A stretch of DNA of 63,957 nt, counting the filler, from Reclinomonas americana ATCC 50394 (taxonomy: Eukaryota): assembly GCA_048213135.1 (NCBI GenBank). It is 16 parts of 16 records of this genome, joined end to end, with 100 filler letters (N's around TTAATTAATTAA, not from the genome) between each part and the next. Parts side by side here need not be neighbours in the genome. Positions count along the whole stretch, not along the records: positions 1 to 8,492 come from AFZH01016987.1; 15 more parts are not named here. One strand, 5' to 3'. A program made the translations under genes and the position numbers. Below the pieces are notes generated by a model that was given only the letters and a program-made list of their open reading frames with translations, did no database searches and was not told where the DNA came from. Shown here piece by piece: positions 254 to 44,976 of this stretch. Every line of letters begins with the position of its first letter. Positions within the stretch are counted from its first letter, which is position 1.

Positions 254-946
254 AGATGCGCACGTGTGAGAGACAGAGAGGGACAGCACGTGTGCATCAG
301 TGAGCGTGCACGCAGACAAGTCGACTCACTCAGCTCACACGCACACACTGCCTCTCCCTCTCTGTGTGTGAGGCCTATCATAGTGTGCACGCGCGAGAGA
401 AACAACAAGAGAGTGCGTGTGTGTGCGCGTGCGTTTTGGATAGTGGGCCATCACACTCTTTGTCACGCACCTTGCACAAAAAGTCATACGATTTCGCCTG
501 CGCAGTGCCGCCTGAGCGCGACGAGCTTGATGTATCACTGGCCATGTTACACACACACACGCGCGCACGCCTCTGAGATCGCTTTGGATGAGAAGTCAGT
601 CCACTGGCGATCCGATGGAATCCTCACTCGTTTTTCTTCATGCATACAACATATGCCCTCAACATCTTCTCTCCCATGTGCCTCTGCCATACTTGCACCT
701 GTTTCCGCGCAGCAAAGCATAAAAAACACAAAAAAATCACAAAGAAAATGAACTTCGAATTCGGGCTTGCTTTCTGTGCATGTTCTTCTTGTGCAAGCGC
801 TCTCTTCTTGGGAGTATGCTATGTAATGTAGAACTCAATGCATGCTGCAGAGCTTGTTGCAATCGACGTTGTCCGCGAATAAATCGTCGACGTCCCCTTC
901 ACACTCGTTCTTTCTTATCTCGACGTCGCACGTGCACACACACACG

Positions 947-2017
947 ATGGCCTCCTCACCTCCTCCCCCCTCCCTCCCGTGCAAGTGCCTCCTTGGGCAC
1001 ACAGCCAGGGTGAATTCCGTGGCCATCACTCCCGACGGTCTGCACGTTGTGAGTGGCAGTGAGGACCGTACAATTCGAGTGTGGTCGCTGGCGAGTGGCA
1101 AGGAGGTACAGCGGCTGGAGGGACACACTGACGAGGTGAATTCTGTCGCCGTCACTCCCGACGGTCAGCGTGTTGTGAGTGGGGGCGATGACTACACAGT
1201 GCGTGTTTGGTCGCTGGCGACAGGGGAGGAAGTGCGACGGCTGGAGGAACATGCAGAGAAAGTGCACAAGGTCGCCGTCACTCCCGATGGTCAGCACGTT
1301 GTGAGTGGCAGTCAAGACCACACGGTGCGTGTGTGGTCCATGGCGAGTGGAGAGGAGGAGCGGCGGGTGGCCGGCAATGTCACTGGCGATGGCCAGCACG
1401 TGATCACCGTGGGCGAGGACGGTGTGCGCTGTGTGCGGTCGCTGGCGAGTGGAGAAGAAGTGCGACGGCTGCAGCACGCCGAGAGAACATTCTCCTTCAC
1501 GGTTGCTCCCGATGGGCAGCACTGTGTGAGCGGAAGCTATGAGAAGACATTGATTGTGTGGTCACTGGCGAGTGGCGAGGAGGTGCGACGGTTGGCAGGG
1601 CATAGGGGGTGGGCGACAGCCATCAAGGTTACTCCCGATAGCCAGCATATTGTGAGTGGCAGTCATGATGCGACAGTGCGTGTGTGGTCAATGGCGAGTG
1701 GAGAGGAGGTGCGACGACTGGTGGGGCACGCGGGCATTGTGTACTCTGTGGCTGTCACCCCCGATGGTCAGCACATTGCGAGCGGCAGCAGGGACAACAC
1801 TGTGCGCGTGTGGTCCACACCGTACGGCCTCGCCCGACTGGAGCTCGATTGTGCGCGCTCGACCATGCGTGCGGTGCAGGAGATGCAGCGTGGGAGCGAA
1901 GAGGAAGAGGAGGAGGATCCGCGTTGCCTCCCGGAGCTGGTGCTGCGCTGCTTCCTGGTCGAGGAGGCCGCGGTCGTTCTGCACCGCTCGCGCACCGACC
2001 CGAGCCTTCGACTGTGA
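947..2017 (+). CDS. WD40 family paralogue A1 (7 WD40 repeats + conserved C-terminal module), intronless
   Basis: ORF from MASSPPPPSLPCKCL; 7 GH..V.SVAVTPDG.HVVSGS.D.TVRVWSLASG repeats (4th shortened); tail ELDCAR..VQEMQ..DPRCLPELVLRCFLVEEA..LRL. Confidence 0.93.
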   Translation: MASSPPPPSLPCKCLLGHTARVNSVAITPDGLHVVSGSEDRTIRVWSLASGKEVQRLEGHTDEVNSVAVTPDGQRVVSGGDDYTVRVWSLATGEEVRRLEEHAEKVHKVAVTPDGQHVVSGSQDHTVRVWSMASGEEERRVAGNVTGDGQHVITVGEDGVRCVRSLASGEEVRRLQHAERTFSFTVAPDGQHCVSGSYEKTLIVWSLASGEEVRRLAGHRGWATAIKVTPDSQHIVSGSHDATVRVWSMASGEEVRRLVGHAGIVYSVAVTPDGQHIASGSRDNTVRVWSTPYGLARLELDCARSTMRAVQEMQRGSEEEEEEDPRCLPELVLRCFLVEEAAVVLHRSRTDPSLRL

Positions 2018-2359: not shown

Positions 2360-3445
2360 ATGGCCTCCCCAGCTCCTCCCCCCACTCTCGCATGCAAGTG
2401 CCTCCGTGGGCACACCAATTCCGTGCACTCTGTCACCTTCACTCCCGATGGCAAGCACATTGTGAGCGGCAGCTGGGACGAGACTTTGCGTGTGTGGTCA
2501 CTAGCGAGTGGGGAGGAGGTGCGACGACTGCAACACAGTTACTTGATAGCGTCTGTCGCTGTCACTCCCGATGGTCGGCATGTTGTGACTGGGAGCGCTG
2601 ATTCGATCGTGCGAGTGTTTCCGCTGGCGAGTGGAGAGCAAGTTCGCCAGTTGGTGGGGCACACCAAGGAGGTATACGCAGTCGCCGTCACTCCCAACTG
2701 TGAGTACATTGTGAGCGGCAGTCAAGACAAGACAGTGCGAGTGTGGTCACTGGCCAGTGGACAACAAGTGCGGCTGGTGGAGGGGCACGCAGACTCGGTA
2801 AACTCTGTCGCTGTCACTCCCGATGGCCTGCACGTTGTGAGTGGCAGCTGTGACATGACTGTGCGTCTGTGGTCACTGGCGAGTGGAAAGGAGGTGCGGC
2901 GGTTTGCGGGAGACATCGGATGGGTGACATCTGTCGCCGTCACTCCCGATGGCCAGCACATTCTATCATGGAGCAGTGACACAACAGTACGCGTGTGGTC
3001 GCTGGCGAGTGGCGACGAGGTGCGACGTCTGGAGGGACATACCAAGTGGGTGCGATCTCTCGCACTTACTCCCGATGGTCTGCACTTTTTGACTGGCAGT
3101 GGAGACAGCATCGTGCGAGTGTGGTCCATGGCGAGTGGTGAGGAAGTGCGACGACTGGAGGGGCACACAGACGCAGTACTCTCTATCGCCGTCACTCCAG
3201 ATGGCCAGCACATTGTCAGTGGCAGTAGTGCCGAGACCGTGCGAGTATGGTCAACGCCGTGCGGCCTCGCTCTGCAGGAACTGGATTGTGCGCGTGCGGC
3301 CATGCGCGCGGTGCAGGAGATGCAAGGAGGAGACGACGAGTATGATCTGCGCTGCCTGCCGGAGATCGTGCTCCGCTGCTTCATGGTCGAGGAGGCCGAG
3401 GTGGTCCTGAATCGCTGCTCCACCGACCCGAGCCTCCGATTGTGA
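2360..3445 (+). CDS. WD40 family paralogue A2
   Basis: 361-aa ORF, 7 WD40 repeats, same leader and tail. Confidence 0.93.
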   Translation: MASPAPPPTLACKCLRGHTNSVHSVTFTPDGKHIVSGSWDETLRVWSLASGEEVRRLQHSYLIASVAVTPDGRHVVTGSADSIVRVFPLASGEQVRQLVGHTKEVYAVAVTPNCEYIVSGSQDKTVRVWSLASGQQVRLVEGHADSVNSVAVTPDGLHVVSGSCDMTVRLWSLASGKEVRRFAGDIGWVTSVAVTPDGQHILSWSSDTTVRVWSLASGDEVRRLEGHTKWVRSLALTPDGLHFLTGSGDSIVRVWSMASGEEVRRLEGHTDAVLSIAVTPDGQHIVSGSSAETVRVWSTPCGLALQELDCARAAMRAVQEMQGGDDEYDLRCLPEIVLRCFMVEEAEVVLNRCSTDPSLRL

Positions 3446-3579: not shown

Positions 3580-3787
3580 ATGTTGGTTTTTTCTTTGTTT
3601 GTTTTCTCGTTTTCTCTTACCCGCTTGTGGCTGGCCGAATCCATTTGCTCGCCAGTGTACGGTGTGGAGTGTAGTAGAACCTAGTGTTGCGGAGCGTGTC
3701 GCCCTTTCCACTCCGAAACCACGTCGACGTCGACCGCAAAGAAATGTCCCTTCACATCATCTCGTTCTCGCACGTGCGCACACAACG

Positions 3788-4861
3788 ATGGCCTCCCCAG
3801 CCCCTCCCCCCTCCCTCCCGTGCAAGTGCCTCCGTGGGCATTCTGGTATGGTGATCTGTGTCGCTGTCACTCCCGACGGTCAGCACGTGGTGAGTGGGGG
3901 CAGTGATGGAACAGTTCGAGTGTGGTCACTGGCAAGTGGCGAGGAGGTGCAACGGCTGGAGGGACACACTGGCTGGGTGTGGTCTGTCACCGTCACTCCC
4001 GACGGTCAGTACGTGGTGAGTGGTGGCGAAGATAAGACTGTGCGAGTGTGGTCACTTGCGAGTGGAGAAGAAGTGCGTCGGCTGGAGGGACACACTGGCT
4101 GGGTGTGGTATGTTGCCGTCATTGCTGATGGTCAGCTCCTGGTGAGCGGAAGCGACGACAGGACTATTCGAGAGTGGTCACTGGCGAGTGGAAAACAAGT
4201 GCGACGGTTCGAGTTGGATTCCGGCACTCTCACTCCCGATGGCCGCTTCATTGTGGGTGTGAGCGGGGACGGAACAGTCGGTGTGTGGTCGCTGGCGAGT
4301 GGAGAAGAAGTGCGACGAGTGAAGCGCACCACCAAAGTCTTCTCCATCACGGTCACCCCCGATGGCCAGCATTGTGTGAGTGCAAATGACGACAGGACGG
4401 TGAGCATGTGGTCACTGGCGAGCGGAGAAGAGGTGCAACGGTTGGAAGGGCACGTGAAGTGGGTGACGATTGTCACCGTTACTCCCGATGGTCTGTACAT
4501 ACTGAGTGGCAGTCAAGACGCGACGGTGCGTATGTGGTCCGTCTTGACGGGGAAGGAAGTGCGACGATTGGAGGGGCACTCGGGCGCAGTGCTGTGTATT
4601 GTCGTCACCCCCAATGGCGAGTGCATTGTGAGTGGGAGCAATGACAATACTGTGCGCGTGTGGTCCACACCATGCGGCCTTGCTCGGCAGGAACGCGATT
4701 GTGCGCGCGCGGCAATGCACGCTGTCCAGGAGATGCTGGAGGAGGAGGAGGAGGATGAAGATCCTCGTTGTCTCCCGGAGCTGGTGCTCCGCTGCTTCCT
4801 GGTCGAGGAGGCCGCGGTCGTTCTGCATCGCTCCAACGCCGACCCCAGCCTCCAATTGTGA
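3788..4861 (+). CDS. WD40 family paralogue A3
   Basis: MASPAPPPSLPCKCL start; 7 repeats (4th shortened); conserved tail. Confidence 0.93.
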   Translation: MASPAPPPSLPCKCLRGHSGMVICVAVTPDGQHVVSGGSDGTVRVWSLASGEEVQRLEGHTGWVWSVTVTPDGQYVVSGGEDKTVRVWSLASGEEVRRLEGHTGWVWYVAVIADGQLLVSGSDDRTIREWSLASGKQVRRFELDSGTLTPDGRFIVGVSGDGTVGVWSLASGEEVRRVKRTTKVFSITVTPDGQHCVSANDDRTVSMWSLASGEEVQRLEGHVKWVTIVTVTPDGLYILSGSQDATVRMWSVLTGKEVRRLEGHSGAVLCIVVTPNGECIVSGSNDNTVRVWSTPCGLARQERDCARAAMHAVQEMLEEEEEDEDPRCLPELVLRCFLVEEAAVVLHRSNADPSLQL

Positions 4862-5007: not shown

Positions 5008-5404
5008 ATATTTGCGCCACGAAATCCTTTTGAGGCCAACACGCGTTTGATTGACTTTGCCTCCTGAAAGGGAAGATGACTATTGGAGAAGTAATTATGT
5101 GTTTGTATACTGTTGGTGTGCCAAGGTCATTGTCGGCAAGGGATTTGTGGGCGTTTATCGCATTGTTGGAATGTGGTGAATGAAGTGTTTTGATTGTGTG
5201 GTGTTTCTCAATTTGCTTTATTGCAGTCTTTCTGTTTTTTCGTTGTGGGTGGCATGTGCTCTCTTCTCGGGTGTTTAATATATAGTAGAACTTGGTGTTG
5301 CAGAGCGTGTCGCCCTTCCACTCCGAAACAACGTCGACGTCGTCCGCATAGAAAGTGTCCCCTGTACATCTCACTCGTCGTTCTCGCCAGTGCGCGCACA
5401 CACG

Positions 5405-6502
5405 ATGGCCTCCCCAGCCCCTCCCCCCTCCCTCCCTTGCAAGTGCCTCCGTGGGCACACCAAATCCGTGCACTCCGTGGCCATCACTCCCGATGGCCAG
5501 CACATTGTGAGCAGTGATGTGACTGTGCATGTGTGGTCACTGGCGAGTGGCGAGGAGGTGCGACGGTTGGAGGCGCACACTGGATCGATAGGGTCTGTCG
5601 CGGTCACTCCTGATGGGCAGTACGTGGTGACCGGGAGCACTGATTCATTCGTGCGGGTGTGGTCGCTGGCGAGTGGCGAGGAATTGCGACGAATGGAGGG
5701 ACACATTGCAGAGGTGCGGTCGGTCGCCGTCACTCCCGATGGTCACCACATTGTGAGTGGTGGTGGAGACAACACAGTGTTGGTGTGGTCGTTGGCGAGT
5801 GGACAAGAAGTGCGGCAGCTGGAGGGTCACACAATGACGGTAAACTCTGTCGCCGTCACTCGCGATGGCCTGCACGTTGTGAGTGGGAGTTGGGACAAGA
5901 CTGTGCGTGTGTGGTCACTGGCGAGTGGAAACGAAGTGCGACGCTTGGAGGGACACACTGGATGGGTGTTCGCCGTCGCCATCACCCCCGATGGGCAGTT
6001 CATTGTGAGTGGGGGCGGCAGTGGTGACAACACAGTGCGAGTGTGGTCACTGGCGAGTGGCGAGGAGGTGCGACGACTGAAGCTGCAGAGCAGTTGGGTG
6101 GCGTCTGTCGCCGTTACTCCGGATGGCCAGCACATTGTTAGTGGGAGTGGCCTTCCGGGCAACACAGTGCAACTGTGGTCACTGGCGACTGGAGAGGAGG
6201 AGCGACGGTTGGAGGGGCACACGGGTGTGGTGTGGTCGGTTGTCGTCACTCCCGATGGCCAACGCATTGTCAGCGGAAGTGACGACAGTACTGTGCGCGT
6301 GTGGCTCACACCATACGGCCTCGCTCAGCTGGAGCTCGATTGTGCGCGTTTGGCCGTGCGCGCTGTGCAGGAGATGCAGCGTGCGGGCGAAGAGGATGAA
6401 GATCCTCGTTGTCTCCCGGAGCTAGTGCTCCGCTGCTTCCTGGTCGAGGAGGCCGCGGTCGTTCTGCATCGCTCGCGCACCGACCCGAGCCTACGACTGT
6501 GA
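5405..6502 (+). CDS. WD40 family paralogue A4
   Basis: MASPAPPPSLPCKCL start; 7 repeats; conserved tail. Confidence 0.93.
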   Translation: MASPAPPPSLPCKCLRGHTKSVHSVAITPDGQHIVSSDVTVHVWSLASGEEVRRLEAHTGSIGSVAVTPDGQYVVTGSTDSFVRVWSLASGEELRRMEGHIAEVRSVAVTPDGHHIVSGGGDNTVLVWSLASGQEVRQLEGHTMTVNSVAVTRDGLHVVSGSWDKTVRVWSLASGNEVRRLEGHTGWVFAVAITPDGQFIVSGGGSGDNTVRVWSLASGEEVRRLKLQSSWVASVAVTPDGQHIVSGSGLPGNTVQLWSLATGEEERRLEGHTGVVWSVVVTPDGQRIVSGSDDSTVRVWLTPYGLAQLELDCARLAVRAVQEMQRAGEEDEDPRCLPELVLRCFLVEEAAVVLHRSRTDPSLRL

Positions 6503-6862: not shown

Positions 6863-9518
6863 ATGCCTCCTGGTGGCCCCCGCGCAACTCACGATGCCCA
6901 CACTGACACTGCCACTAACGGCAACAACAGTGTGATCCACACACGACTCACAGAAGACGATGTGGAGGATGGGCAGCTTACGTTTGACACGCCGACCTCT
7001 TCTTCCACCACAGCAGCAGCGGCAACGAAACGCGAAGAGAATGGCAGTAGAGTGGCACTTGACATGCGGGAAAAGGTGACCGCGTGTCGCATCCAACGAG
7101 GGTGAGTGACTGTGAGTGCGCGCGAAAACAACACGCTCATGGCAGTTGGCATATCATCATCATCTTGTCATGTTTTCCTCATTGTTTCGTGTTCATCACC
7201 TCTCTCACACAGGACGATCAATGTGTTCTTGTTGGGCTTGTCGTTCCTCTTTGTGTTTTATTGCTTTGCCCCGACGCAAGTTGAGTTGTTTGTGCAACTG
7301 ATCGCCAGTTGGAAGAGATGTGCGGAAAGAGCAGCGATTCTTTGTCAGTGGGAGGGAAAGGGAGAGAGAGGAGAGAGAGGAGAGAGAGGGAGGGGGGAAG
7401 AGGGTGACTGGTGATCGCGATCAGAGACAACTGAGATGCGGAGATGCGAAGGAAGCATGAGAGAGAGAGAGAGAGAGACGCAATGCGATGGGCAGGTGCT
7501 TGAAGAGTCGCAGTTTGTCGGGCACGCAGTGACAACTGAGATGTGGAGATCCATGAGGAGTGAGAGTTGTTGAGAGCGAGTGTTGGGCGATCGCAGGCGC
7601 AGAGGGAGGTTCGGGAGCAGCGATTCTGTCGTCTCGAGAGTGTTTGGCGCGGTCAGTGATGAGCAAGCAGTTCGTCAGCGAGGTGACAAGGCAGTTGGCA
7701 GGGGATTCTGGCATGACTGGCACGTCGTGACAACTCAAATTGTGGAGAGGGTTCCGCGAGCTGTGAGTGCAATGGAAAACGAGGCGCGGGGATGCTGAAG
7801 AAGCGATTCTCTCGCATGCAAGAGCAAGTGTGTGAGTAACTGAAAGAGCGAGAGAGAGAGAGGGAGACAGAGTCAGTTGCACTTCAGAATCGCCGCACAT
7901 ATCTTTCTCCGCGTCAGGCATTGTGCATCGTGATGGTGGCGGGAGTTGACTCATGAATGCCCTTGCAGTCCTACATGACCAAGCTGAATGCCGATTTGGG
8001 ATTTGCCAGCATGGCGATGTTGTATCTGGTATTTGGGTTTGCCTCTCTCGGCGCGCCGTGGGTCATCAAGAAGCTGGGAATCAGGTGCGGTGTGATGCTC
8101 TGCTGGCTGGCTCTCCCACGTCTCACATCTGCTCTGAATGATTGCAGACTGGCGCTCATTGTTGCCGCTGTGCCGTACATTGTGTACGCGCTGGCATGCA
8201 TTCCGGCCACGCCATTCACCTTGCTGCCGGCGTCGTTTATTATCGGACTGGGTGGTGAGTCACCGGCTAGGTGTAGGGCACTCACTGGGCAAGCGCCCGT
8301 TTCAGCAGTTCCTGTCGTCTTTTCTTTTTGCGCGTCTCCGTGTCGCATGACTGTTTCCGTGTTACGACTGTGCTCTCCCAGTATCGCTGATGCATGCTCC
8401 TTTTGCCGCTGCTTCTCCATGTGTCCTTTTGCTCGCTTTCCTTGTCACCGCCGCTTGCCCGGGTCGCGTACTCTCTCTCTCTCTCTCTCTCTNNNNNNNN
8501 NNNNNNNNNNNNNNNNNNNNNNNNNNNNNNNNNNNNTTAATTAATTAANNNNNNNNNNNNNNNNNNNNNNNNNNNNNNNNNNNNNNNNNNNNCTCTCTCT
8601 CTGCCTCTCCCTCTCTCTGACTCTCTCTTTCTCTCACTTAGTGGCGTTCTTGTATTTGTTCCCAGAGCTGTGACACTCGCGTCGCTCTCGTGCTCAATGT
8701 TTCACACCGCCTTCTCTCCATCTCCATTCACCCCTTCATCAACTTCCCTCATTCCACCCTTCCCCCACCAGGCGCCGTGCTGTGGACATCGCAAGGCGAG
8801 TACCTGGCTGGTGCCTCTGACCCCGCCACCGTCGGCTTCCTCTCCGGACTGGTACGCCGCTTGCTCTCTTCCTTCTCCCCTTCCTCGTTCTCACTCGCCC
8901 GCAGTTCTTCGCACTATTGCAAATCGGCTGCCTTGCGGGCAACGTCAGCGTGAGCGCCCTCGTGTCGCTGGATGTGCCGGTGGCCTCGGTGTTTTTGATT
9001 CTGGCCGTCGTCGGCTGTGTGGGCCTTGTGGTCATGTTCTTCTTGGGGTGCGTGCACTTTCATGTGTGATCTGCTCCTCCCAGCGCATTGTCAGGTTGCT
9101 CATGCCCTTCTCCATTTTCCACTCACACTTCTCGACCCAGCCGCATCGACGGGGACACTGCGGTCAAGTCGGAACGGTCACCAAAGGCAATTTTCTCGCT
9201 CTTTGTGCGCAAGGACTTTGCGCTGCTGCAGGGAGTAATTATGCTTGGCGGCATTAGTCAGGTGAGAGAACTGCTTGTTGCTTCGCTTGTTGTTTCTTCC
9301 CGCTCACGGTCTGTATTGTCTGTGCGTCAGTCGCTGTACAGCGGCAAGTACCCACCGACGCTGGCGACGGAGCATGTGGGTCTCTTTGCTGCCGTGATTG
9401 CCATTGCGTCCATCGTAGGTGAGGCGCGGGGAAAGGAGATGGAGAGGGAAGGGAGTGCGAGAGGGTGAGGGTGAAGGAGTTTTGAGAGGGTGGGAGAGGA
9501 CAAGTGAGAAAATCGCCC

Positions 9519-13681: not shown

Positions 13682-14773
13682 TCACAAACGGAGACGGTCA
13701 TCGGTGAAGCAGCGATGAACAACGACTTCTGCTTCCTCGACCAGGAAGCAGCGCAGCACCATCTCTGGCAAGCATCGCGGATCTTCTTCGTCTTCTTGCT
13801 GCATCTCCTGCACAGCCAGCATGGCCGCCCGCGCGCAGTCGAGCTCCTGTTGAGCGAGACCACACGGTGTGGACCACACTCGCACAGTGCAGTCGCAGCT
13901 CGCGCTTATTATGTGCTGACTGTCGGAGGAGACGGCTACACACACTACCTCACCGGTGTGTCCCTCCAGCCGGCGTACCTCCGCGCCGCTCGCCACACAC
14001 CACACTCGCACGGTGTTGTCTTGACTGCCACTCACAACATGGTGACAGTCGGGCGTGACAGTGACCGCGCACACCCGCTCAGTGTGCCCCTTTAGACGCT
14101 GCACCTCCTCTCCACTTGCCAGCGACCACACACGCACAGTCCTGTCAAAACTCCCACTGACTATGAACTGGCTGTCGGGGGTAATGGCGACAGAGTACAC
14201 CGAACCAGTGTGCCCCTGCAACCGCCGCACCTCTTCGCCAGTCACCAGCGACCATACTCGCACTGTGTAGTCAAAAAAACCGCCACCACTCACAGCATGC
14301 TGGTCATCGGCGGTGACGGCGACAGACAACACCGCCCCAGTGTGTCCCTTCAACTCACGCACAACGCTGCCACTCGCCAGTGACCACACGCGCACAGTTG
14401 TATCGGCACTTCCGCTCACAACGAACTCACCATCGCGCGTGACAACGGCAGAGTACACCGCATCCTTGTGCCCCTCCAATCGTCGCACTTCCTCCCCACT
14501 CGCCAGAGACCACACCCGCACGGTTCCCTCTGAACTCCCACTCATCACAATGTGCTGGCCGTCGGGAGTAATGACAATCGACGACACCCACTCGGTGCGC
14601 TCCTCTAATCGTTGCACCTCAATGCCACGAGCCAGTGCCCACACGAGCACTGTTCTGCCATCATGCCCACTCACAATGTGCCGACCGTCAGGAGTGATGG
14701 CCACTGATCGTACAGCGCGACTGTGGCCACGCAGGCACTTGCAGGGAAGGGAAGGGGGAGGTGGCGAGGCCAT
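13682..14773 (-). CDS. WD40 family paralogue B1
   Basis: MASPPPPSLPCKCL; 7 repeats; conserved tail ending FTDDRLRL. Confidence 0.93.
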   Translation of the reverse strand: MASPPPPSLPCKCLRGHSRAVRSVAITPDGRHIVSGHDGRTVLVWALARGIEVQRLEERTEWVSSIVITPDGQHIVMSGSSEGTVRVWSLASGEEVRRLEGHKDAVYSAVVTRDGEFVVSGSADTTVRVWSLASGSVVRELKGHTGAVLSVAVTADDQHAVSGGGFFDYTVRVWSLVTGEEVRRLQGHTGSVYSVAITPDSQFIVSGSFDRTVRVWSLASGEEVQRLKGHTERVCAVTVTPDCHHVVSGSQDNTVRVWCVASGAEVRRLEGHTGEVVCVAVSSDSQHIISASCDCTVRVWSTPCGLAQQELDCARAAMLAVQEMQQEDEEDPRCLPEMVLRCFLVEEAEVVVHRCFTDDRLRL

Positions 14774-14941: not shown

Positions 14942-16030
14942 TCACAAGCGGAGACGGTCGTCGGTGAAACAGCGATGAACAACAACTTCGGCCTCCTCGA
15001 ACAGGAAGCAGCGCATTACAATCTCCGGGAGGCAGCGCGGATCTTCTTCACACTCTTCGTCTTGTTGCATTTCTTGTACAGCCAGCATGGCCGCCCGCGC
15101 GCAGTCGAGCTCCTGTTGCGCGAGACCGCACGGTGTGGACCACACTCGCACGGTGTCGTCAAAGCTGCCGCTTACAATATGCTGCCCATCGGAGGAGACA
15201 GCGATAGACACCACCGCATCGTTGTGTCCTTTCATCCGTCGCACCTCCAATCCGCTTACCAGCGACCACACGTGCACTGCCCTGTTTCGAGTACCGCTCA
15301 CCACGTACTGACAATCGAGAGTGACGGCGACGGAGCGCACCGCATCAGAGTGCTGCAAGCAACGCACCTCCTCTCCGCTCGCCAGCGACCACACTCGCAC
15401 AGTTCTGTCGGCACTCCCGCTCACAACGTGCTGACCATCGGGGGTGACGGCGACCGACCACACCGGCCCGGAGTGTCCTTCCAACTGCCGTACCTCCTCC
15501 CCACTCGCCAAAGACCATAGTCGCACTACACTGTCTAGCAAGCCGGCACCACTAACAACGTGCTGACCATCGGGGGTGATGGCGACAGACCACACCGGCC
15601 CAGTGTGTCCTTCCAGCAGTCGCACTTGGTCTCCTTTCTCAAGTGACCATACGCGCACTGTCTTATCGACACTTCCGCTCACAACGTACTCGCCATTGCG
15701 TGTGATGGCGACAGAGTACACGGCATCCTTGTGCCCCTCCAGCCATCGCACTTCCTCCCCGCTCACCATAGACCACACTCGCACCACTCCGTCTGAACTC
15801 CCACTCACAACGTGCTGGCCATCCGGAGTGACGGCGATGCACTTTACCCAGTGCCAGTGTTCTTTCAGCTGTTGCACTTGCTCTCCACTCGCCAGTGACC
15901 ACACGAGCACTGTTCTGCCATCATTCCCACTCACAACATGCTGACCATGAGGAGTGATGGCCACTGATCGTACAGCGCCACTATGGCGACACAGGCACTT
16001 GCACGGGAGGGAAGGGGGAGGTGAGTTCAT
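14942..16030 (-). CDS. WD40 family paralogue B2
   Basis: MNSPPPSLPCKCL; 7 repeats; conserved tail. Confidence 0.93.
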   Translation of the reverse strand: MNSPPPSLPCKCLCRHSGAVRSVAITPHGQHVVSGNDGRTVLVWSLASGEQVQQLKEHWHWVKCIAVTPDGQHVVSGSSDGVVRVWSMVSGEEVRWLEGHKDAVYSVAITRNGEYVVSGSVDKTVRVWSLEKGDQVRLLEGHTGPVWSVAITPDGQHVVSGAGLLDSVVRLWSLASGEEVRQLEGHSGPVWSVAVTPDGQHVVSGSADRTVRVWSLASGEEVRCLQHSDAVRSVAVTLDCQYVVSGTRNRAVHVWSLVSGLEVRRMKGHNDAVVSIAVSSDGQHIVSGSFDDTVRVWSTPCGLAQQELDCARAAMLAVQEMQQDEECEEDPRCLPEIVMRCFLFEEAEVVVHRCFTDDRLRL

Positions 16031-16209: not shown

Positions 16210-17316
16210 TCACAAACGCAGACGGTCGTCCATGAAACAGCGATGAACAACAACTTCGGCCTCCTCGACGAGAAAGCAAAACGCATCACGATCTCTGGGA
16301 GGCAGCGCGTATCTTCTTCATCCTCTTCTACCTCTCCGTCTTCTTCTTCCTGCATCTCCTGCACAGCCAGCATGACCAAGCGCGCAGTCGAGCTCTTGTT
16401 GAGCGAGACCACACGGTGTGGACCACACACGCACAGTGGAGTCCCCGCTGCCGCTCACAATGTGATGGCCAGCGGAGGAGATGGCGACAGCTTGCACCGT
16501 TTCAGTGTGTCCCTCCAACCGTCGCACCTCCGCACCGGTGGCCACTGACCACACTCGCACGGTCCTGTCTTGACCCCCGCTCACGATGTATTGACCATCG
16601 ACGGAGACGGCAACAGTGCGCACCCACTCAGTGTGCCCCTTTAGTCGCTGCACCTCCTCTCCACTCTCCATCGACCACACTCGCACCGTTTTATCAGCAC
16701 CCCCACTCACGATGCGTTGACCATCGAGGGTGATGGCAACACAAAACACCCACCCAGTGTGCCCCGCCAGCCGTCGCATCTCCTCCCCACTCGCCACAGA
16801 CCACACTCGCACAGTCGTGTCCGCACTGCCACTCACGACGCGCTGGCCATCGTGAGTGATGGCGACGGAATAGACTTGACGAGTGTGGCCATTCAACAGT
16901 CGCACTTGGTCTCCACTCGCCGGCGACGAAACACGCAGTGACTTGTCAGTACTCCCACTCATCACAGTCAGACCATCGGGGGTGATGGCAGCAGATCGTA
17001 CCCATGCGTCTTGTCCAACTTGCCGTCGCATCTCCTCGCCAGTCACCGTTGACCACACTCGCATTGTCATGTGTACACTCCCACTCGCAGCTGCAATTGA
17101 CTGGCCATCTGGAGCGACGGCGACGCACCAAACCCAACCACTGTGCCCCTCAAACCGTCGCACTTCCTCTCCGCTCGAGAGTGACCAGATGCGCACTGTG
17201 CTGTCTTGGCCTCCACTCACAATTCTTTCGCCGTTGGGAGTGATGGCCAGGGATCGTACAGCGCCACTGTGACCACGCAGGCACTTGCATGGGAGTGAAG
17301 GGGGAGGTGAGGCCAT
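16210..17316 (-). pseudogene. WD40 family paralogue B3 with frameshifted tail (stop at 16318)
   Basis: 7 intact repeats; -2 nt near 16380 and +2 nt near 16279 relative to paralogues; tail still recognisable in shifted frames. Confidence 0.8.
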
Positions 17317-17495: not shown

Positions 17496-18596
17496 TCACA
17501 AGCGGAGACGGTCATCGGTGAAACAGCGATGAACAACGACTTCGGCCTCCTCGACCAGGAAGCAACGCATCACAATCTCTGGGAGGCAGCGCGGATCTTC
17601 GTCTTCTACCTCTTCGTCTTCTTCCTGCATCTCCTGCACAGCGCACATGGCCGCCCGGGCACAGTCGAGCTCCTGGCAAGCGAGACCGCATGGTGTGGAC
17701 CACACTCGCACAGTGCTGTCATCACTCCCGCTCACGATGTGCTGCCCGTCAGGTGAAATGGCAACCGACCACACGTAGTTTGTGTGTCCCTCCAGCCGTC
17801 GCACCTCCTCTCCACTCGCCACAGACCACACTCGCAGGGTGTTGTCTTTACTCCCACTCACGATGTGTTGCCCGTCGGGCGTGATGGCCACGGTGCGCAC
17901 CCAGTCAGAGTGACCCTCAAGCCGTCGTACCTCCTCTCCGCTCGCCATTGACCACACGCGGACAGTGCTGTCACTGCTCCCGCTCACTATGAACTGGTTA
18001 TCGGGGGTGATCGCGACAGAGTACACCGGACCAGTGTGCCCCTTCAACTGTCGGACTTCTTCACCGGTCACCATAGACCACACTCGCACGATGTTGTCAA
18101 ACAAGCCGCTGCCGCCGACAACGTGCTGACCGTCGGCGGCAGCGGCGACGGACCACACCACGCTACCGTGCGCCTTCCACACTCGCACAACGCTGCCACT
18201 CGCTAGTGACCACACGCGCACAGTTGTGTCGGCACTTCCGCTCACAACGTACTCGCCATCGAGAGTGACAACGGCAGAGTACACCGCATCCTTGTGCCCC
18301 TCCAGCCGTCGCACTTCCTCCCCACTCACCAGAGACCACACTCGCACGGTTCCGCTTGAGCTCCCAATCACGACGTGCTGGCCATCGCGTGTGACAGCAA
18401 CACTCTTCACCCAGTGCGAGTGTTCTTTCAAGTGTCGCACTTGCTCTCCACTCGCCAATGCCCACACAAGCGCTGTACTGCCATCATGCCCACTCACAAT
18501 GTGCCGACCGTCAGGAGTGATGGCCAGGGATCGCACGGCGCCGCAGTGACCATGCAGGCACTTGCACGGGAGTGAAGGGGGAGGTGGCAAGGTCAT
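17496..18596 (-). CDS. WD40 family paralogue B4
   Basis: MTLPPPPSLPCKCL; 7 repeats; conserved tail. Confidence 0.93.
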   Translation of the reverse strand: MTLPPPPSLPCKCLHGHCGAVRSLAITPDGRHIVSGHDGSTALVWALASGEQVRHLKEHSHWVKSVAVTRDGQHVVIGSSSGTVRVWSLVSGEEVRRLEGHKDAVYSAVVTLDGEYVVSGSADTTVRVWSLASGSVVRVWKAHGSVVWSVAAAADGQHVVGGSGLFDNIVRVWSMVTGEEVRQLKGHTGPVYSVAITPDNQFIVSGSSDSTVRVWSMASGEEVRRLEGHSDWVRTVAITPDGQHIVSGSKDNTLRVWSVASGEEVRRLEGHTNYVWSVAISPDGQHIVSGSDDSTVRVWSTPCGLACQELDCARAAMCAVQEMQEEDEEVEDEDPRCLPEIVMRCFLVEEAEVVVHRCFTDDRLRL

Positions 18597-18968
18597 GGTG
18601 TGTGTGCGTACACGCGTGATTGATATGACAGGAGTGGACACAGCNNNNNNNNNNNNNNNNNNNNNNNNNNNNNNNNNNNNNNNNNNNNTTAATTAATTAA
18701 NNNNNNNNNNNNNNNNNNNNNNNNNNNNNNNNNNNNNNNNNNNNAAAAGCGAGAAAAAGTCGAGATGGCTAATATTAATGCTGGCGTTTCTGCAAGAGAA
18801 ACCACGGCTCGTGACAAGCATGGACAAAGTCGAGAACTGCGATCTTCACCGCATAAGCGTGGTTGTCCAGTGGATTTGACGCACTTGCATGATGTACATT
18901 ATAGAAGGCGCGAGATACATAGATGAAAACGAAAGCCGAGCACACATACAGAAAGCAAAGATAAACAA

Positions 18969-20304
18969 TCACCAACGAAAACGGTCGTCAATGACACAGC
19001 GATGAACAACGACCTCTGCATCCTCGACCAGGAAGCAGCGCATCTCAATCTCCACGAGACAGCGCGGGTCTTCTTCATCACAATCGTCGTCTGCTTCCTG
19101 CATCTCCTGCACAGCCAGCATGGCCGCCCGCGCGCAGTCGCGCTCTAGACGGGCGAGAACGTGGAAGCGGAGGGTGGACCACACACGCACAGTGGTATCA
19201 TGACTCCCACTCGTTAGTTTATACCCGACGGTGAATGTGACAGGATGCAGCTCCTTGACCCTTAACCCTTAACCCGGGGGCCCCTACCCTTGACCCTTTG
19301 CTCTTGACCGTTGGCTTCCTGGGCCCTTGACCCTTTACCCGAGTGTGGGGCAAAAGTTGTGTCTTGCGCAAGTCGCGAAATGTAAGTAGAGACTCCGATT
19401 TGCATGACCAACTGTCGCAGTGCATCTTCACATTACTAGATACAATGTACAAACCATCGCGAGAGATGGCAACCGACGTAACCTCTCCGGCGTGTCCCCA
19501 CAGCTGCCTCATCTCCTCGCCGCTCGCGAGGGACCACACTCGCACTGTCGAATCACCACTCCCGCTCACTACGAGCTCGCTGTCGGGAGTGACGGCGACA
19601 GACGACACCCACTCAGTGTGCCCTTCCAGCATTCGCACTTCTTCCCCTGTCGCCAGTGACCACACTCGCGCGGTCGCGTCACTGCTCCCACTCACGACAT
19701 GCTGGCCGTCGGGGGAGATGGCGACGGAATACACCGGGCAACTGTGCCCCTCCAACCACCGCACGTGCTCGCCACGTGCCAGCGACAGCACTCGCACCCT
19801 GTTGCCTGGATAGCCATTCGCGCTCAAGATGTGCTGGTTATCAGGGGTGACAGCGACGGACCACACCTGCTGAGAGTGTCCTAACACCGTGCGCACTTCT
19901 TCTCCAGTCACCAGAGACCACACTTGCACGGACAAGTCACGAGTGCCCCCCACAATGTGCTGGCCATCGGGAGTGACGGCGACGGAGAGCACCCAATCAT
20001 AGAGCTGCCGTGATCGCCACACTTCCTCCCCGCTCTCGAATGACCACACCCGCACTGTCTTGTCTTGGCTCCCGCTCACCACGTGCTGGGCGTCGGGAGT
20101 GACGGCGACAGATTGCACCGGATCGAAGTGTCCCTCCAGCCGGCGCACTTCTGTCATCGTCACCAGCGACCAAATCCGAATGGTGAGATCCTTGCTCCCG
20201 CTCACCACGTGCTGACAATCGGGAGTGAAGACGACGGAGAGCACCCAGTCAGTGTGCCCATGTAGGCACTTGAATGGGAGAGAGGGGAGATGAGGCAAGG
20301 CCAT
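18969..20304 (-). pseudogene. WD40 family paralogue B5, interrupted in repeat 7 by a 229-bp insertion
   Basis: ..DGLYIV|insert|SGSHDTTVRVWST..ERDCARAAM..RCFLVEDAE..; removing 19213-19441 restores the frame. Confidence 0.88.
19213..19441 (-). mobile_element. Non-autonomous insertion with Helitron-like termini and internal CCCTTRA-type repeats
   Basis: Splits a GT|G codon with no target duplication; minus strand starts ATCTAGTAAT and ends CGGGTATAAACTAAC. Confidence 0.6.
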
Positions 20305-20480
20305 GCGCGTGTGTGTGTGTTGAGAGTTCGTCGGGACATTTTTCCGAACTTCGGAACATGGTCGACACGGAAGGTGAGTTGCATGACTTTCTGCAGAGGT
20401 TCGTCAAGAGAGAGAGAGAGAGACAGCCTTTCATTAAGTAGAAACGAAAGCCAAAGGAATATTATGGGAAAGATAAACAA

Positions 20481-20971
20481 TCAAAAACGGAGGCGGTCGT
20501 CGACGAAGCAGCGATTGACAATGACTTCTGCTTCCTCGACCAGAAAGCAACGCAGCACCATCTCCGGCAAGCAGCGGGGNNNNNNNNNNNNNNNNNNNNN
20601 NNNNNNNNNNNNNNNNNNNNNNNTTAATTAATTAANNNNNNNNNNNNNNNNNNNNNNNNNNNNNNNNNNNNNNNNNNNNTTCTTCTTCTCCTCCCGTGAG
20701 TGACCACACTTCGCACTGTCTCGTCTCGGCCCCCACTCACCACACACTGGCCATCTGGCGTAACAACAACAGCAAACACCCACCCAAAGTGCCCTTTGAA
20801 ACGTCGCACCTCCTCGCCACTCGCCAGCGACCACATGCGCACGGTCGAATCCTTACTCCCGCTCACCACGTGCCGACCATCGGGGGTGAATGCAACACTA
20901 ATCACCCAGTCAGTGTGCCCGCAAAGGCACTTGCACGGGATGAAAAGAGGAGGAGAAGGGCTCGAGGTCAT
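20481..20971 (-). CDS. WD40 family paralogue B6 (middle missing in gap 20580-20679)
   Basis: MTSSPSPPLFIPCKCL + 2 repeats before the gap; PRCLPEMVLRCFLVEEAEVIVNRCFVDDRLRF* after it. Confidence 0.8.
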
Positions 20972-21113
20972 GTGTGAGTACGGTGAGATTTTCTTGCAGG
21001 ACTTCGTCTTCATCTGCGTCGAGCCTTCAGCGGAGAGCGCAGCATGGATTTTACTTTGAACATACAATAGGCGACACACGAGAAGCACAGGAGAGGAAAA
21101 ACAAAAACAACAA

Positions 21114-22211
21114 TCAAAAACGGAGGCGGTCGTCGGCGATACAGCGATGAACAATGACTTCGGCCTCCTCGACCAGGAAGCAACGCAGCACCATCTCCGG
21201 CAAGCAGCGGGGATCCTCGTCGACCTCTCCGTCGTCCTCTTGCATCTCCCGCACAGCGCGCATCGCCGCGCGGACGCAGTTGAGTTCCAGACGCGCAAGA
21301 CCGCATGGAGAAGACCACACTCGCACTGCGCGGTCACGACCGCCGCTCGCAACGTGCTGACCATCGGGGGAAACGCAGACGGACAACGCTGCCACAGTGT
21401 GTCCCTCTAGCCATCGCACTTCCTCTCCCCTTGCCAGTGACCACAAGCGAATCATCTTGTCCTCACCTCCACTCACAACGAGTTGACCATTGGGAGTGAC
21501 GGCAACAGAGAACACAACGTCAGTGTGCCCGTTCAGTCGCCGCACCTCCTCGCCACTCGCCAGTTTCCACACTCGCACCGTCCTGTCGGCACTTCCGCTC
21601 ACAACAAACTGGTCGTCAGGAGTGACACTGACGGACGACACACGTCCAGTGTGTCCCTCCATTCGTCGCACCTCCTCCCCACTCGCCAGTGACCACACTC
21701 GCACTGCGTTGTCCTCACTGCCGCTCACTATGTGCTGACCATCGCGAGTGAGGGCAACAGACCATACACCCCCAGCGTGTCCCTGGAACAGTCGCACTTC
21801 CTCCCCACTCGCCATTGACCACGCGCGCATGGTGCCATCTGTACTGCCACTCACAATGTACTGTCCATCGGGAGTGATGGCAACAGAAGGCACCAAATTG
21901 GTGTGTCCCTCCATTCGTCGCACCTCCTCCCCACTCGCCAGTGACCACACGCGCACTGTCTTATCATAGCTGCCACTGATGATGTGTCGACCGTCGGGAG
22001 TGACGGCAACATATCGCACCCAGGAAGAGTGTCCCTCGAACCGTTGGACTTCCTCGCCGCTCGCCAGCGACCACACGCGCACGGTCATATCCTTACCCCC
22101 GCTCACCACGTGCTGGCCATCGGGAGTGAAGGTGACAGCCAACGCCCAGCTAGTGTGCTTCCATATGCACTTGGACGGGAGGGAAGCAGGAGGAGAAGGG
22201 GTCGAGGCCAT
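21114..22211 (-). CDS. WD40 family paralogue B7
   Basis: MASTPSPPASLPSKC; 7 repeats; conserved tail. Confidence 0.93.
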   Translation of the reverse strand: MASTPSPPASLPSKCIWKHTSWALAVTFTPDGQHVVSGGKDMTVRVWSLASGEEVQRFEGHSSWVRYVAVTPDGRHIISGSYDKTVRVWSLASGEEVRRMEGHTNLVPSVAITPDGQYIVSGSTDGTMRAWSMASGEEVRLFQGHAGGVWSVALTRDGQHIVSGSEDNAVRVWSLASGEEVRRMEGHTGRVSSVSVTPDDQFVVSGSADRTVRVWKLASGEEVRRLNGHTDVVFSVAVTPNGQLVVSGGEDKMIRLWSLARGEEVRWLEGHTVAALSVCVSPDGQHVASGGRDRAVRVWSSPCGLARLELNCVRAAMRAVREMQEDDGEVDEDPRCLPEMVLRCFLVEEAEVIVHRCIADDRLRF

Positions 22212-22320
22212 GGTGCGTGCGTCCGTGCGTGCGTGAGAAGCTGTGAGAGGTCTGTGAGATACTGTAGATGCGGAGGACATTACCGCATCTTCACTCGACT
22301 TTTCGTTGCTGCAGGGGTTC

Positions 22321-22402
<82 letters not shown>

Positions 22403-22548
22403 TAGTTCTTACGTTAAGTAAGAAACGAACGACGAACGAACGAAGAAGNNNNNNNNNNNNNNNNNNNNNNNNNNNNNNNNNNNNNNNNNNNNTTAATTAA
22501 TTAANNNNNNNNNNNNNNNNNNNNNNNNNNNNNNNNNNNNNNNNNNNN

Positions 22549-22835
22549 TCGTCGCCACTCACCAGTGACCACACTCGCACTGTCTCGTCTCGGCCCCCAC
22601 TCACCACACACTGGCCATCTGGCGTAACAACAACAGCAAACACCCACCCAAAGTGCCCTTTGAAACGTCGCACCTCCTCGCCGCTCGCCAGCGACCACAT
22701 GCGCACGGTCGAATCCTTACTCCCGCTCACCACGTGCCGACCATCGGGAGTGAATGCAACAGCGAACACCCAGTTAGTGTGCTCCCATAGACGCTTGCAC
22801 AGGAGTGGAGCGGGAGGAGAAGGAGTCGAGGTCAT
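22549..22835 (-). CDS. WD40 family paralogue B8 (5' part; rest in gap)
   Basis: MTSTPSPPAPLLCKRL + 2 repeats running into the gap. Confidence 0.8.
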
Positions 22836-42657: not shown

Positions 42658-43725
42658 ATGACCACCTTCTTCCCTCGCATGTGCATACACGGGCACACGC
42701 AACCCGTAAAGTGTGTCGCCGTCACTCCCGACGGTCAGCACGTGGTGAGTGGCAGTCAAGACAAGACTGTGCGAGTGTGGTCGCTGGCGAGTGGTGTGCC
42801 AGTGAGATTGCTGGAGGGGCACACTGATATGGTGTGGTCTGTTGCGGTGACTCGTGACGGGCGACACGTTGTGAGTGGGAGTGAAGACAACACAGTGCGT
42901 GTGTGGTCGCTGGTGAGTGGAGAAGGAGACGAGGTGCGACGGTTGGAGGGACACACTGCTGCGGTGATGTCTGTCGCCGTCACGCCCACTGGAGAGTTTA
43001 TTGTGAGTGGGAGCTATGACAAGACAGTGCGAGTGTGGTCGCTGGCGAGTGGCGCGGAGGTGCGACGATTCGAGGATCGCGGCTATGTGCGATCTGTCGC
43101 CGTCACTCACGACGGTGAGCGTATCGTGAGCGGAGGCAGTGATGGCGACGTGCAAGTGTGGTCTGTGGCGAGTGGGGAGGAGGTGCGACGGTTGAAGGGT
43201 CACGCACACTGGTTGTGGTGCGTTGCCGTCACCCCCAATGGTGAGCACTTGGTGAGTGCGAGTTATGACAAGACAGTGAGCGTGTGGTCGCTGGCGAGTG
43301 GCGAGCAGATGCAACGGTTGCAAGGGCACACTTCAGTGGTGACCTCGGTCGCCGTCACTCCCGACGGTCGGCACATTGTGAGCGGCAGTCAAGACGAAAC
43401 AGTGCGAGTGTGGTCGCTGGCGAGTGGGGAAGAGGTGTGTCGGTTGGAGGACCATCACAGTGGTGCGGTGTATTCAGTTGCCGTGACTCCCGACGGGCAG
43501 CACATTGTGAGTGGGCGCGGGGATAGAGCTGTGCGAGTGTGGTCGACTCCGTACGGCCTCGCACGGCAGGAGGTCGATTGTGCGCGCAAGGCTTTGCGCG
43601 ATGTGCAGGAGATGCAAGAAGAGGAAGAAGAGGATCTACGTTGCCTCGCGGAGATCGCATTGCGCTGCTTCCTGGTCGAGGAGGCCGAGATGATTTGCCA
43701 TCGCAGCTTCAGTCTGTGCTTGTGA
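42658..43725 (+). CDS. WD40 family paralogue C1
   Basis: MTTFFPRMCIHGH; 7 repeats; tail EVDCARKAL..RCLAEIALRCFLVEEA. Confidence 0.92.
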   Translation: MTTFFPRMCIHGHTQPVKCVAVTPDGQHVVSGSQDKTVRVWSLASGVPVRLLEGHTDMVWSVAVTRDGRHVVSGSEDNTVRVWSLVSGEGDEVRRLEGHTAAVMSVAVTPTGEFIVSGSYDKTVRVWSLASGAEVRRFEDRGYVRSVAVTHDGERIVSGGSDGDVQVWSVASGEEVRRLKGHAHWLWCVAVTPNGEHLVSASYDKTVSVWSLASGEQMQRLQGHTSVVTSVAVTPDGRHIVSGSQDETVRVWSLASGEEVCRLEDHHSGAVYSVAVTPDGQHIVSGRGDRAVRVWSTPYGLARQEVDCARKALRDVQEMQEEEEEDLRCLAEIALRCFLVEEAEMICHRSFSLCL

Positions 43726-43890: not shown

Positions 43891-44976
43891 ATGGCTTCCG
43901 CGCGTCCCTTTCTCTCGTGCAGATGCTTGCGCGGGCACACCATGAGCATATCCTCTCTGGCACTCACTCCCGACGGCCAGCACATTGTGAGTGGCAGTGC
44001 AGACCAGACGGTGCGGGTGTGGTCACTGGCGAGTGGAGCTGAGGTGCATCTGCTGGACGGACACTTTGATTCGGTGTCGTCTGTCGCTGTGACTCCCGAT
44101 GGCCAGCACATTGTCAGTGGCAGTCAAGACAGCACAATGCGTGTGTGGTCCATGTCGAGTGGACAACAGGTGCGACGGCTGCTGGGGCACACTTGCAAAG
44201 TGCTATCTGTCGCCGTCACTCCCAATGGTGAGCACATTGTGAGTGCGAACGGGGACCAGACAGTGCGCGTGTGGTCCCTGGCGACCGGTGAGGAGGTGCG
44301 ACGGCTGAAGGATCCTTACATGGTGCGATATGTAGCCGTAACTCCCGACGGTCAGCATGTTGTCGGTGGGAGTGTTGGTCGGTTTGTGCAAGTGTGGTCA
44401 CTGGCAAGTGGCGAAGAGGTGCGGCGATTGGGGCCGCACTTGGACATATTGACGTGTCTGGCTGTCACTCCCGACAGTCACTACATTGTGAGCGGTAGTC
44501 TTGACAGGAAAGTGCGAGTGTGGTCTCTGGCGAGTGGGGAGGAGGTGCGACGGATGGAGGGGCGCGCGCATGCTGTGTTTTGCGTCGCGGTCACCCCCAG
44601 TGGCCGACACATTGTGAATGCGAGTGGATTTGACAACGCGGTGCGGGTGTGGTCGCTGGCGAGTGGCGAAGAAGTGTGTCGGTTGGAGGGGCACACGTAT
44701 GCCGTGAGTGCTGTCGCCGTCACTCCAGACGGTGAACACATTGTGAGCGGAAGCGATGACCTCACCATACGAGTGTGGTCCACTCCCTACGGCCTCGCTC
44801 GGCAGGAGCTCGACTGTGCGCGCAAGGCTTTGCGTGCCGTGCAGGGGATGCAAGAAGAGGAGGGCGAGGTTGAAGATTCACGCTGCCTGCCGGAGTTGGC
44901 ACTGCGCTGCTTCCTGGTCGAAGAAGCCGAGGTCGTTGTCTATCGCTGCTTCAGCGACTCGAGTCTCTGCCTGTGA
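43891..44976 (+). CDS. WD40 family paralogue C2
   Basis: MASARPFLSCRCL; 7 repeats; conserved tail. Confidence 0.92.
   Translation: MASARPFLSCRCLRGHTMSISSLALTPDGQHIVSGSADQTVRVWSLASGAEVHLLDGHFDSVSSVAVTPDGQHIVSGSQDSTMRVWSMSSGQQVRRLLGHTCKVLSVAVTPNGEHIVSANGDQTVRVWSLATGEEVRRLKDPYMVRYVAVTPDGQHVVGGSVGRFVQVWSLASGEEVRRLGPHLDILTCLAVTPDSHYIVSGSLDRKVRVWSLASGEEVRRMEGRAHAVFCVAVTPSGRHIVNASGFDNAVRVWSLASGEEVCRLEGHTYAVSAVAVTPDGEHIVSGSDDLTIRVWSTPYGLARQELDCARKALRAVQGMQEEEGEVEDSRCLPELALRCFLVEEAEVVVYRCFSDSSLCL

Follow-up and report, generated by a model that had tools for sequence, protein, structure and literature searches.

What kind of gene joins a WD40 propeller that varies at the same few positions of every blade to a C-terminal tail that hardly varies from copy to copy? 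The question is raised by gene 1, an intronless open reading frame (ORF) of 356 amino acids (aa) at 947..2017 (+) of a 63,957-nucleotide (nt) stretch of Reclinomonas americana ATCC 50394 DNA (GCA_048213135.1), in which 16 parts of 16 records are joined by filler. This whole stretch is called the window below. Gene 1 was read, at slightly better than even chances, as one unit of a birth-and-death family of cytosolic recognition proteins that share a constant tail.

Variable positions of the propeller

Gene 1 was delimited using its ORF, Pfam matches and an AlphaFold2 model. Starting 16 residues ahead of the first GH, it encodes in order a short Pro-rich leader, seven WD40 blades (992..1813, +) and a helical tail. 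Repeats were numbered with the His of GH as position 9 and the Trp of strand c as position 37. In blades 1, 2, 3, 5, 6 and 7, His9 is found at 998, 1124, 1250, 1475, 1601 and 1727 (+), respectively; blade 4 (about 1370-1440, +) is degenerate, with ~11 residues gone, strand a among them. Pfam matched PF00400 at E 2e-63, and NACHT was not among the 25 best Pfam families. AlphaFold2, run on 13 window paralogs, gave a predicted local distance difference test (pLDDT) of 89.6, a predicted template modelling score (pTM) of 0.87 and three helices in the tail. The best solved match of the model in Foldseek was 5yzv (template modelling score 0.73, E 2.6e-32), a repetitive bacterial propeller. As modelled, the product of gene 1 is a seven-bladed WD40 beta-propeller.

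Variation was analyzed in a detailed sample of 80 loci plus the window (624 kb excluding N), holding 311 tail matches in 310 frames; the 80 loci were chosen among the best matches to gene 1 and are therefore not a random sample of the family. The frames comprised 203 intact seven-blade genes (all under 385 aa by filter), 42 copies truncated at an edge or gap, 9 interrupted by an inner gap, 30 consisting of the tail only, 25 closed upstream and a single longer one.

A first-pass annotation of the locus, made from the sequence alone, had claimed that variation is concentrated at the same few positions of every blade, and this was borne out. Across the 203 intact genes, positions 11, 12, 14, 30 and 32 reached an entropy of 3.4, 3.8, 3.9, 4.0 and 3.65 bits. 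At the other 37 positions it was 2.5-2.6 bits at 7 and 10 and 0.24-2.0 elsewhere. Similarly, the 13 intact window genes gave 3.2, 3.5, 3.7, 3.8 and 3.4 bits at the five positions and 0.1-2.4 at the other 37. The peaks were present in each of the seven blades (115 genes, after 3 of 118 were dropped as irregular), and 674 of 748 regular blades, including 37/37 in the window, carried a distinct four-site signature. The site pattern is real, well beyond chance. In blade 1 of gene 1, hypervariable cluster A (1004..1015, +) brackets conserved Val13 with positions 11, 12 (R1-2, Arg) and 14 (R1, Asn); cluster B (1061..1069, +) brackets conserved Asp31 with position 30 (D-1, Glu) and position 32 (Arg).

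Residue use at these sites is not free. Trp exceeded the expectation from base composition 7-12x at position 12 and 4-7x at position 14, in line with the aromatic use first noted there, and Pro was nearly absent at 11, 14, 30 and 32. Insertions were commonest after position 30 (15 events in 115 genes). The scaffold had been called nearly invariant, which overstates the case: identity among the blades of gene 1 is 53%, against a family median of 60%, and blade 4 is degenerate.

In the AlphaFold2 model, strands a, b and c cover residues 22-27, 33-38 and 42-47. Positions 11-14 therefore fall in the d-a loop and the start of strand a, and positions 30-32 in the b-c turn. Positions 12, 14 and 30 correspond to R1-2, R1 and D-1, listed as top-face hotspots in PMC3419727. 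Strand register and published topology together support a location of the variable sites on the modelled propeller's top face, so that they cluster on one face as had been proposed.

The proposed equivalence with the selected sites of Podospora HET-D/HET-E also held. In Podospora, two codon pairs are described as selected, 7/9 on either side of conserved 8 and 25/27 on either side of conserved 26 (PMC1805685, Paoletti), and family sites 12/14/30/32 match all four, in the same loops and with the same 18-residue spacing. Both the Podospora anserina HNWD/NWD NOD-like receptors (NLRs; HET-D, HET-E, HET-R) and the family use 42-aa WD40 repeats (PMC1805685, PMC12222747), with four variable sites on the top face, one pair in the d-a loop and one in the b-c turn, each pair enclosing a conserved residue. 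The mechanistic side of the analogy fails. Family genes have one propeller and an orphan tail but neither HET nor NACHT, and number in the hundreds as against the about ten HNWD/NWD genes described. Their internal blade identity is 44-71% aa, whereas HNWD repeats are reported as >80% identical inside a gene (PMC12222747); within-gene concerted evolution is absent; and omega is near 1-2 and model-dependent, as opposed to strongly positive in the Podospora account. With NACHT and concerted evolution absent, the family resembles the HET-D/E sensor surface in its working but is no member of that group.

Another parallel is given by the highly or moderately repetitive WD40 proteins known from bacteria, fungi and protists (PMC5587647; 5yzv, 2ymu), which show conserved repeats, diverse hotspots and the same fold. 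Since hotspot diversity was already noted there, the pattern is not unique to this family. Its internal identity of about 0.6 corresponds to the 'moderately repetitive' class of that paper; what differs is the expansion to many hundreds with a constant tail.

Duplication and rates of change

The way in which copies multiply was read from the blades. Four-fold-site identity was 0.527 among blades of one gene vs 0.518 for unrelated blades. Of 805 blades, 518 had as their nearest blade the one of the same number in another gene (114 expected), and for 2 the nearest one belonged to their own gene (6 expected by chance). These counts therefore indicate whole-gene duplication and not repeat homogenisation of the HET type. 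In-register exchange was evident: although under 85% identical, 13 pairs have exact 40-mers in common over spans of 141-733 nt that may be broken. Identical tracts out of register numbered 44, each of 40-50 nt, and none of these covered two variable sites.

Haplotype-like pairs differed by 4.9% at the arrays vs 2.3% at housekeeping E2 loci (L081-L110), which could reflect balancing selection or mismatched paralogs. Differences clustered within 1-6 nt in both kinds of pairs. Silent differences were 3-4x higher beside multi-base jumps at variable codons (13/62 vs 17/352; 11/59 vs 23/390), and 41 conversion-like patches were spread over the whole repeat, 39 of 154 units having been dropped as wholly diverged. 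Because clustering is equally strong at E2 loci, it is not family-specific. Family-specific micro-conversion aimed at the variable loops was considered and found unsupported, given the repeat-wide patches and the similar E2 pairs.

Codon models were fitted to the 203 genes, with 2,882 of 73,486 codons masked near gaps and trees built from non-variable codons only. The scaffold gave a ratio of non-synonymous to synonymous rates (dN/dS, omega) of 0.21. Measured against the scaffold synonymous rate and with double hits allowed, omega was 1.79, 1.73, 2.01, 1.17 and 1.50 at positions 12, 14, 30, 32 and 11. Non-synonymous rates were 1.7-2.9 at the five variable positions vs 0.05-0.78 at the other 37. 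The ratio of top-face dN to scaffold dS was 1.0 for allele-like pairs and climbed to 2.0 for older paralogs: over four bins of rising blade-pair divergence it was 0.99 [0.75-1.26], 1.33 [1.11-1.57], 1.91 [1.60-2.29] and 1.97 [1.73-2.23], intervals that are optimistic because pairs share genes across blades. The bins held 121, 82, 99 and 151 blade pairs chosen on neighbouring blades, a fifth being saturated. Scaffold dN/dS stayed steady across them (0.32-0.30), and constant-rate expectations for the top face are flat or falling, unlike the observed rise.

Further comparisons pointed the same way. Top-face dN lay above alignable flanking non-coding divergence in 6/6 bins, with 16 and 27 pairs lacking alignable flanks, so that flank divergence is biased low. 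A mutation-selection model fitted the variable sites 186-386 log-units better, with a realised omega of 1.45-3.1 on blade-local trees; the strong residue preferences kept by these sites gave a static expectation of 0.67-0.84. In a branch-mixture (episodic) test, the likelihood-ratio test (LRT) statistic was 51, 52, 81 and 24 at positions 12, 14, 30 and 32, 2.9 at position 11 and 0-2.5 at six control positions.

Several results weigh against selection as the driver. With the synonymous rate of each site itself and double hits, omega was 1.14, 1.03, 1.60, 0.82 and 0.81 at 12/14/30/32/11 on the whole-gene tree and 1.22, 1.14, 1.41, 0.90 and 0.83 on blade-local trees; only position 30 was significantly above 1 in both tree sets (LRT 14.5 and 8.7). 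Whole-gene pairs at least 90% identical gave a ratio of 0.70-0.74 (14 pairs; choice by total identity biases this low). Against the ten fastest synonymous positions, picked post hoc, the ratio was 0.87-1.38. Values above 1 also came out of the mutation-selection model at scaffold sites where Val, Pro or Leu is conserved and synonymous rates are low, and the model is for that reason poorly calibrated. The episodic LRT dropped to 0-3.3 if 15-35% of branches were allowed ten-fold bursts in both kinds of change; recombination, clustered mutation or selection could each give rise to such bursts. Recombination is present, silent differences piling up beside multi-base jumps at variable codons as given above.

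The yardstick itself is uneven. Synonymous rates along the scaffold ran from 0.34 to 3.16, and codon use depends strongly on position: GTG encodes 82-94% of Val at positions 3, 13, 34 and 36, GTC 65-84% of that at 16 and 18, and Thr33 and Gly42 are mixed. Because of this ten-fold variation, the verdict on selection depends on the yardstick, and a naive dN/dS overstates selection in this family. The diversifying selection put forward in the first-pass annotation thus has partial, borderline support: omega is above 1 by mean scaffold dS (1.17-2.01), and by own-site dS (0.81-1.60) it is significantly so at position 30 only. In short, the rate at the variable sites is 5-10 times that of the scaffold and equals or modestly exceeds the neutral rate, even though residue preferences are clear; positive selection probably contributes.

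The family, its tail and the related NLRs

An exact pattern of the tail core gave 1,035 matches in the 108-Mb assembly and 0 for the reversed control. E2 genes come as pairs mostly 2-3% apart, so haplotypes are partly uncollapsed and the haploid family number may therefore be about half of 1,035. None of the 30 E2 loci extracted from 56 E2 matches carried a tail match. Frames of 500-1,800 aa with a tail were rejected as long forms, since they hold N-runs. At 20 further loci with widely spaced copies, seven-blade genes or fragments were found again. A subfamily on contigs C51, C56 and C58 (L114-L123) lacks the Met before blade 1, is spaced at 3-6 kb and has a shorter tail ending in FRC; from its sequence, it probably has an upstream exon. 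Separately, a divergent tail-like stretch was seen beside gaps at L131:3650-3760, with no WD40 blades detected nearby.

The tail of gene 1 (1817..2017, +; 66 aa) is a conserved orphan segment with a long helix, an acidic loop and a helical core, modelled as a helical hairpin. It sits behind family blades in nearly all copies read and is under purifying selection (dN/dS 0.20 in the helix and 0.11 in the core). Compared with 1.84 billion representatives, the tail profile retrieved 3 proteins. The best is an expressed sequence tag (EST; E 1e-27) of the jakobid Reclinomonas americana, 80% identical to one copy compared, from which we infer that at least one family member is transcribed; a look for RNA sequencing runs listed none, which is evidence neither way. 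The other two, divergent propellers without a name, come from other samples and end in this tail; they suggest that the layout of WD40 blades plus tail is older than the shared blade type. A literature search restricted to bibliographic entries found no published account of such a family.

Attempts to place the tail gave little. Its profile had 0 matches among PDB sequences, a word-based homolog search confirmed 0 of 10 candidates, and 109 matches of the tail pattern in metagenome contigs yielded 0 confirmed. The ESM Atlas returned a best value of 0.78 and nothing named. The best fold match had Z 6.9 and a root-mean-square deviation of 2.4 over 61 residues, amid many unrelated helical pairs, and no SOCS, VHL or F-box chain was among the 50 fold matches listed, a result that excludes none of these folds. 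Two negatives weigh against a ubiquitin-ligase connection: none of 59 tails gave a Pfam F-box, SOCS or VHL match with an E-value cut-off of 10 (most matches above 0.1 are removed by HMMER filters), and the genome had no Pfam match to the SOCS box. It does encode Elongin C and Skp1 and has 13 F-box-like matches. Predicting the tail in complex with Elongin C of this genome gave a score of 0.01 (intron read through, without Elongin B, alignments unused), which is evidence neither way. The Elongin C gene (L111:1498-1872) is itself divergent and carries an in-frame 66-nt intron; one metagenome protein was the only close relative found.

In part, the tail core has a spacing like that of the cullin box in SOCS/VHL boxes; the tail lacks BC-box spacing. 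The WD40-SOCS-box proteins WSB1/2 are cullin-RING substrate adaptors, and SOCS and VHL boxes are C-terminal, as is the family tail. The family differs from such adaptors in that its tail matches none of the F-box, SOCS or VHL models. Nematode F-box adaptors are described as a tandem expansion in which a conserved module is joined to a fast-changing substrate-binding domain (PMC8120010, citing Thomas 2006); the likeness lies in the constant module held by purifying selection, the fast-changing binding domain and the tandem expansion. Because of this analogous pattern, a ubiquitin-ligase scaffold is the first choice of tail partner, with members acting as substrate receptors for foreign proteins, a choice that is tentative and falls well short of even chances.

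The same blades are also used by NLRs. At least 97 NACHT matches were scored in the genome (287 candidates), and three NLRs read at length are NACHT-pentapeptide-WD40 proteins (Pfam run on one). NLRs lie at L128:3070-7497 (-), L134:244-4599, L135:175-4494 and L136-L153. Their layout is an orphan head, NACHT, pentapeptide repeats and about 14 WD40 blades of the stand-alone type. Of 20 fetched N-termini, 19 share a head with an HEPN-like motif (RxxxxH in many copies; an Atlas lead of 0.78 only). Blade identity between NLRs and stand-alone genes was 0.757 vs 0.768 among stand-alone genes (27 blades, 3 NLRs), and NLR blades vary at the same positions; the sensor surface therefore has a common origin. 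Two NLRs read to the end finish in a short motif loosely like the tail core, and one NLR adjoins a stand-alone gene (L128). Homology of the tail to the NLR head, considered for a shared VEEA-like motif, was rejected (HHalign probability 0.9%, no hidden Markov model matches).

The window carries 19 family genes in three clusters, of which 13 are intact, one has a frameshift in the tail, one is interrupted in blade 7 and four are gap-cut. Gene 1 is followed on the same strand by paralogs 2 (2360..3445, +), 3 (3788..4861, +, with the blade-4 deletion) and 4 (5405..6502, +), all intact. Paralogs 5-8 lie at 13682-14773, 14942-16030, 16318-17316 and 17496-18596 (-), the frameshift being in paralog 7. 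Paralogs 9-12 occupy 19219..22835 (-), with paralog 9 at 19219-20304 (span from motif placement) and intact paralog 11 at 21114-22211. Blade 7 of paralog 9 is broken by an insertion of ~100-150 nt (about 19200-19330, -), and its tail continues in another frame; paralogs 10 and 12 are gap-cut and identical to each other at 253/271 nt. The third cluster holds paralogs 13-16 (42658-43725, 43891-44976, 45499-46596, 46776-47867, +) and 17-19 (48048-49025, 49415-50497, 50690-51556, +), with 17 and 19 gap-cut. Among 17 variable motifs quoted in the first-pass annotation for 992..1813, seven (TARVN, TDEVN, RGWAT, AGIVY, EDR, DDY, QDH) are in gene 1. The other ten, all three quoted loop insertions among them, are in paralogs 2, 4, 5, 6, 8, 9, 11 and 13.

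Upstream of gene 1 (820..946, +), the motifs GTAGAAC (about -115) and GTCGACGTC (about -65) were found. They are common to genes 1-4 at fixed distances (820-946, 2240-2359, 3670-3787, 5280-5404), are mostly lacking in the remaining window genes and are possible promoter elements, judged from sequence. The family genes sit among ordinary intron-bearing eukaryotic genes (UNC-93, JmjC, aquaporin, SDR, ERG24, Arf; window Pfam scan). Each of the 15 window gaps (e.g. 8493-8592, 18645-18744) consists of two runs of 44 N flanking 12 bases; in two gaps read this core is TTAATTAATTAA, an assembly spacer that puts stops into every frame. Over the first gap (8493-8592), exon matches to UNC-93 keep their order, which suggests real linkage. 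An unrelated WD40 fragment with a PROPPIN match was seen at 60205-60561 (-).

Competing explanations and meaning

Own-site omega of about 1 at four of five sites is what relaxed constraint and drift would produce. The top face would then be neutral apart from structural limits, and its excess over dS would come from recombination and from constrained synonymous sites, as the spread of scaffold synonymous rates and the position-specific codon use would allow. Neutral change at a fast-class rate of 2.3 indeed reproduces the two deeper bins (0.81 vs 0.74; 1.27 vs 1.17), a burst null fits equally well, and 55 of the 310 tail-bearing frames are tail-only or closed upstream. The sites are not fully neutral, however, with Pro and Ile depleted and Trp enriched, and once residue preferences are included even a rate of 3.0 is too low in the deeper bins (0.70 vs 0.74; 1.03 vs 1.17). 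No single rate fits near and deep pairs, 203 of the 310 frames are intact with the scaffold constrained, and variability is limited to one face. Drift was accordingly judged rather unlikely.

The NLRs raise another possibility, that stand-alone propellers are detached sensors or decoys signalling to, or shielding, the NACHT-pentapeptide-WD40 NLRs with their HEPN-like head. The number of NACHT matches, the layout of the NLRs read, the near-equal blade identity with the same variable positions and the neighbouring pair at L128 speak for it. Shared blade ancestry is no proof of interaction, though, homology between tail and NLR N-terminus was not detectable, Pfam matches of 93 other window ORFs include no NACHT, and the two divergent proteins suggest a layout that predates the shared blade type; we consider this improbable. 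Most improbable is a HET-E-type system, in which repeats are homogenised and shuffled by concerted evolution for self/non-self incompatibility. It shares the four variable sites reported for Podospora, and the excess divergence of array pairs over E2 pairs would suit it. Repeat shuffling is already contradicted by the four-fold identities, by nearest blades that almost never lie in the same gene and by out-of-register tracts that never join two variable sites, and internal identity is well below the HNWD value in PMC12222747.

We therefore return to the birth-and-death family of recognition proteins. Each member would provide one stable propeller with ~35 top-face residues setting its ligand, and the constant helical tail would be presented by all members to one shared cellular partner; both ligand binding and the common partner are inferred. 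New specificities would arise by tandem whole-gene duplication and in-register paralog exchange, followed by bursts of top-face replacement that are partly selection-driven; within allele-like pairs, the face changes no faster than silent sites. An antibody-like intracellular repertoire in a free-living jakobid flagellate would go further: 500-1,000 germ-line single-propeller binders with the tail as effector handle, acting with ~100 or more HEPN-like NACHT NLRs of the same blade pool as cell-autonomous immunity against viruses or ingested bacteria. This is a speculative and rather doubtful extension.

The site pattern alone was already known from repetitive WD40 propellers. What sets the family apart is scale and layout: a deep-branching eukaryote has hundreds of NLR-free single propellers, all with the same constant orphan tail, alongside NLRs that draw on the same blades. 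It amounts to a natural library in which a single stable scaffold carries varied faces and, if selection and the shared tail partner hold, would be a model on which non-self recognition in free-living protists could be tested.
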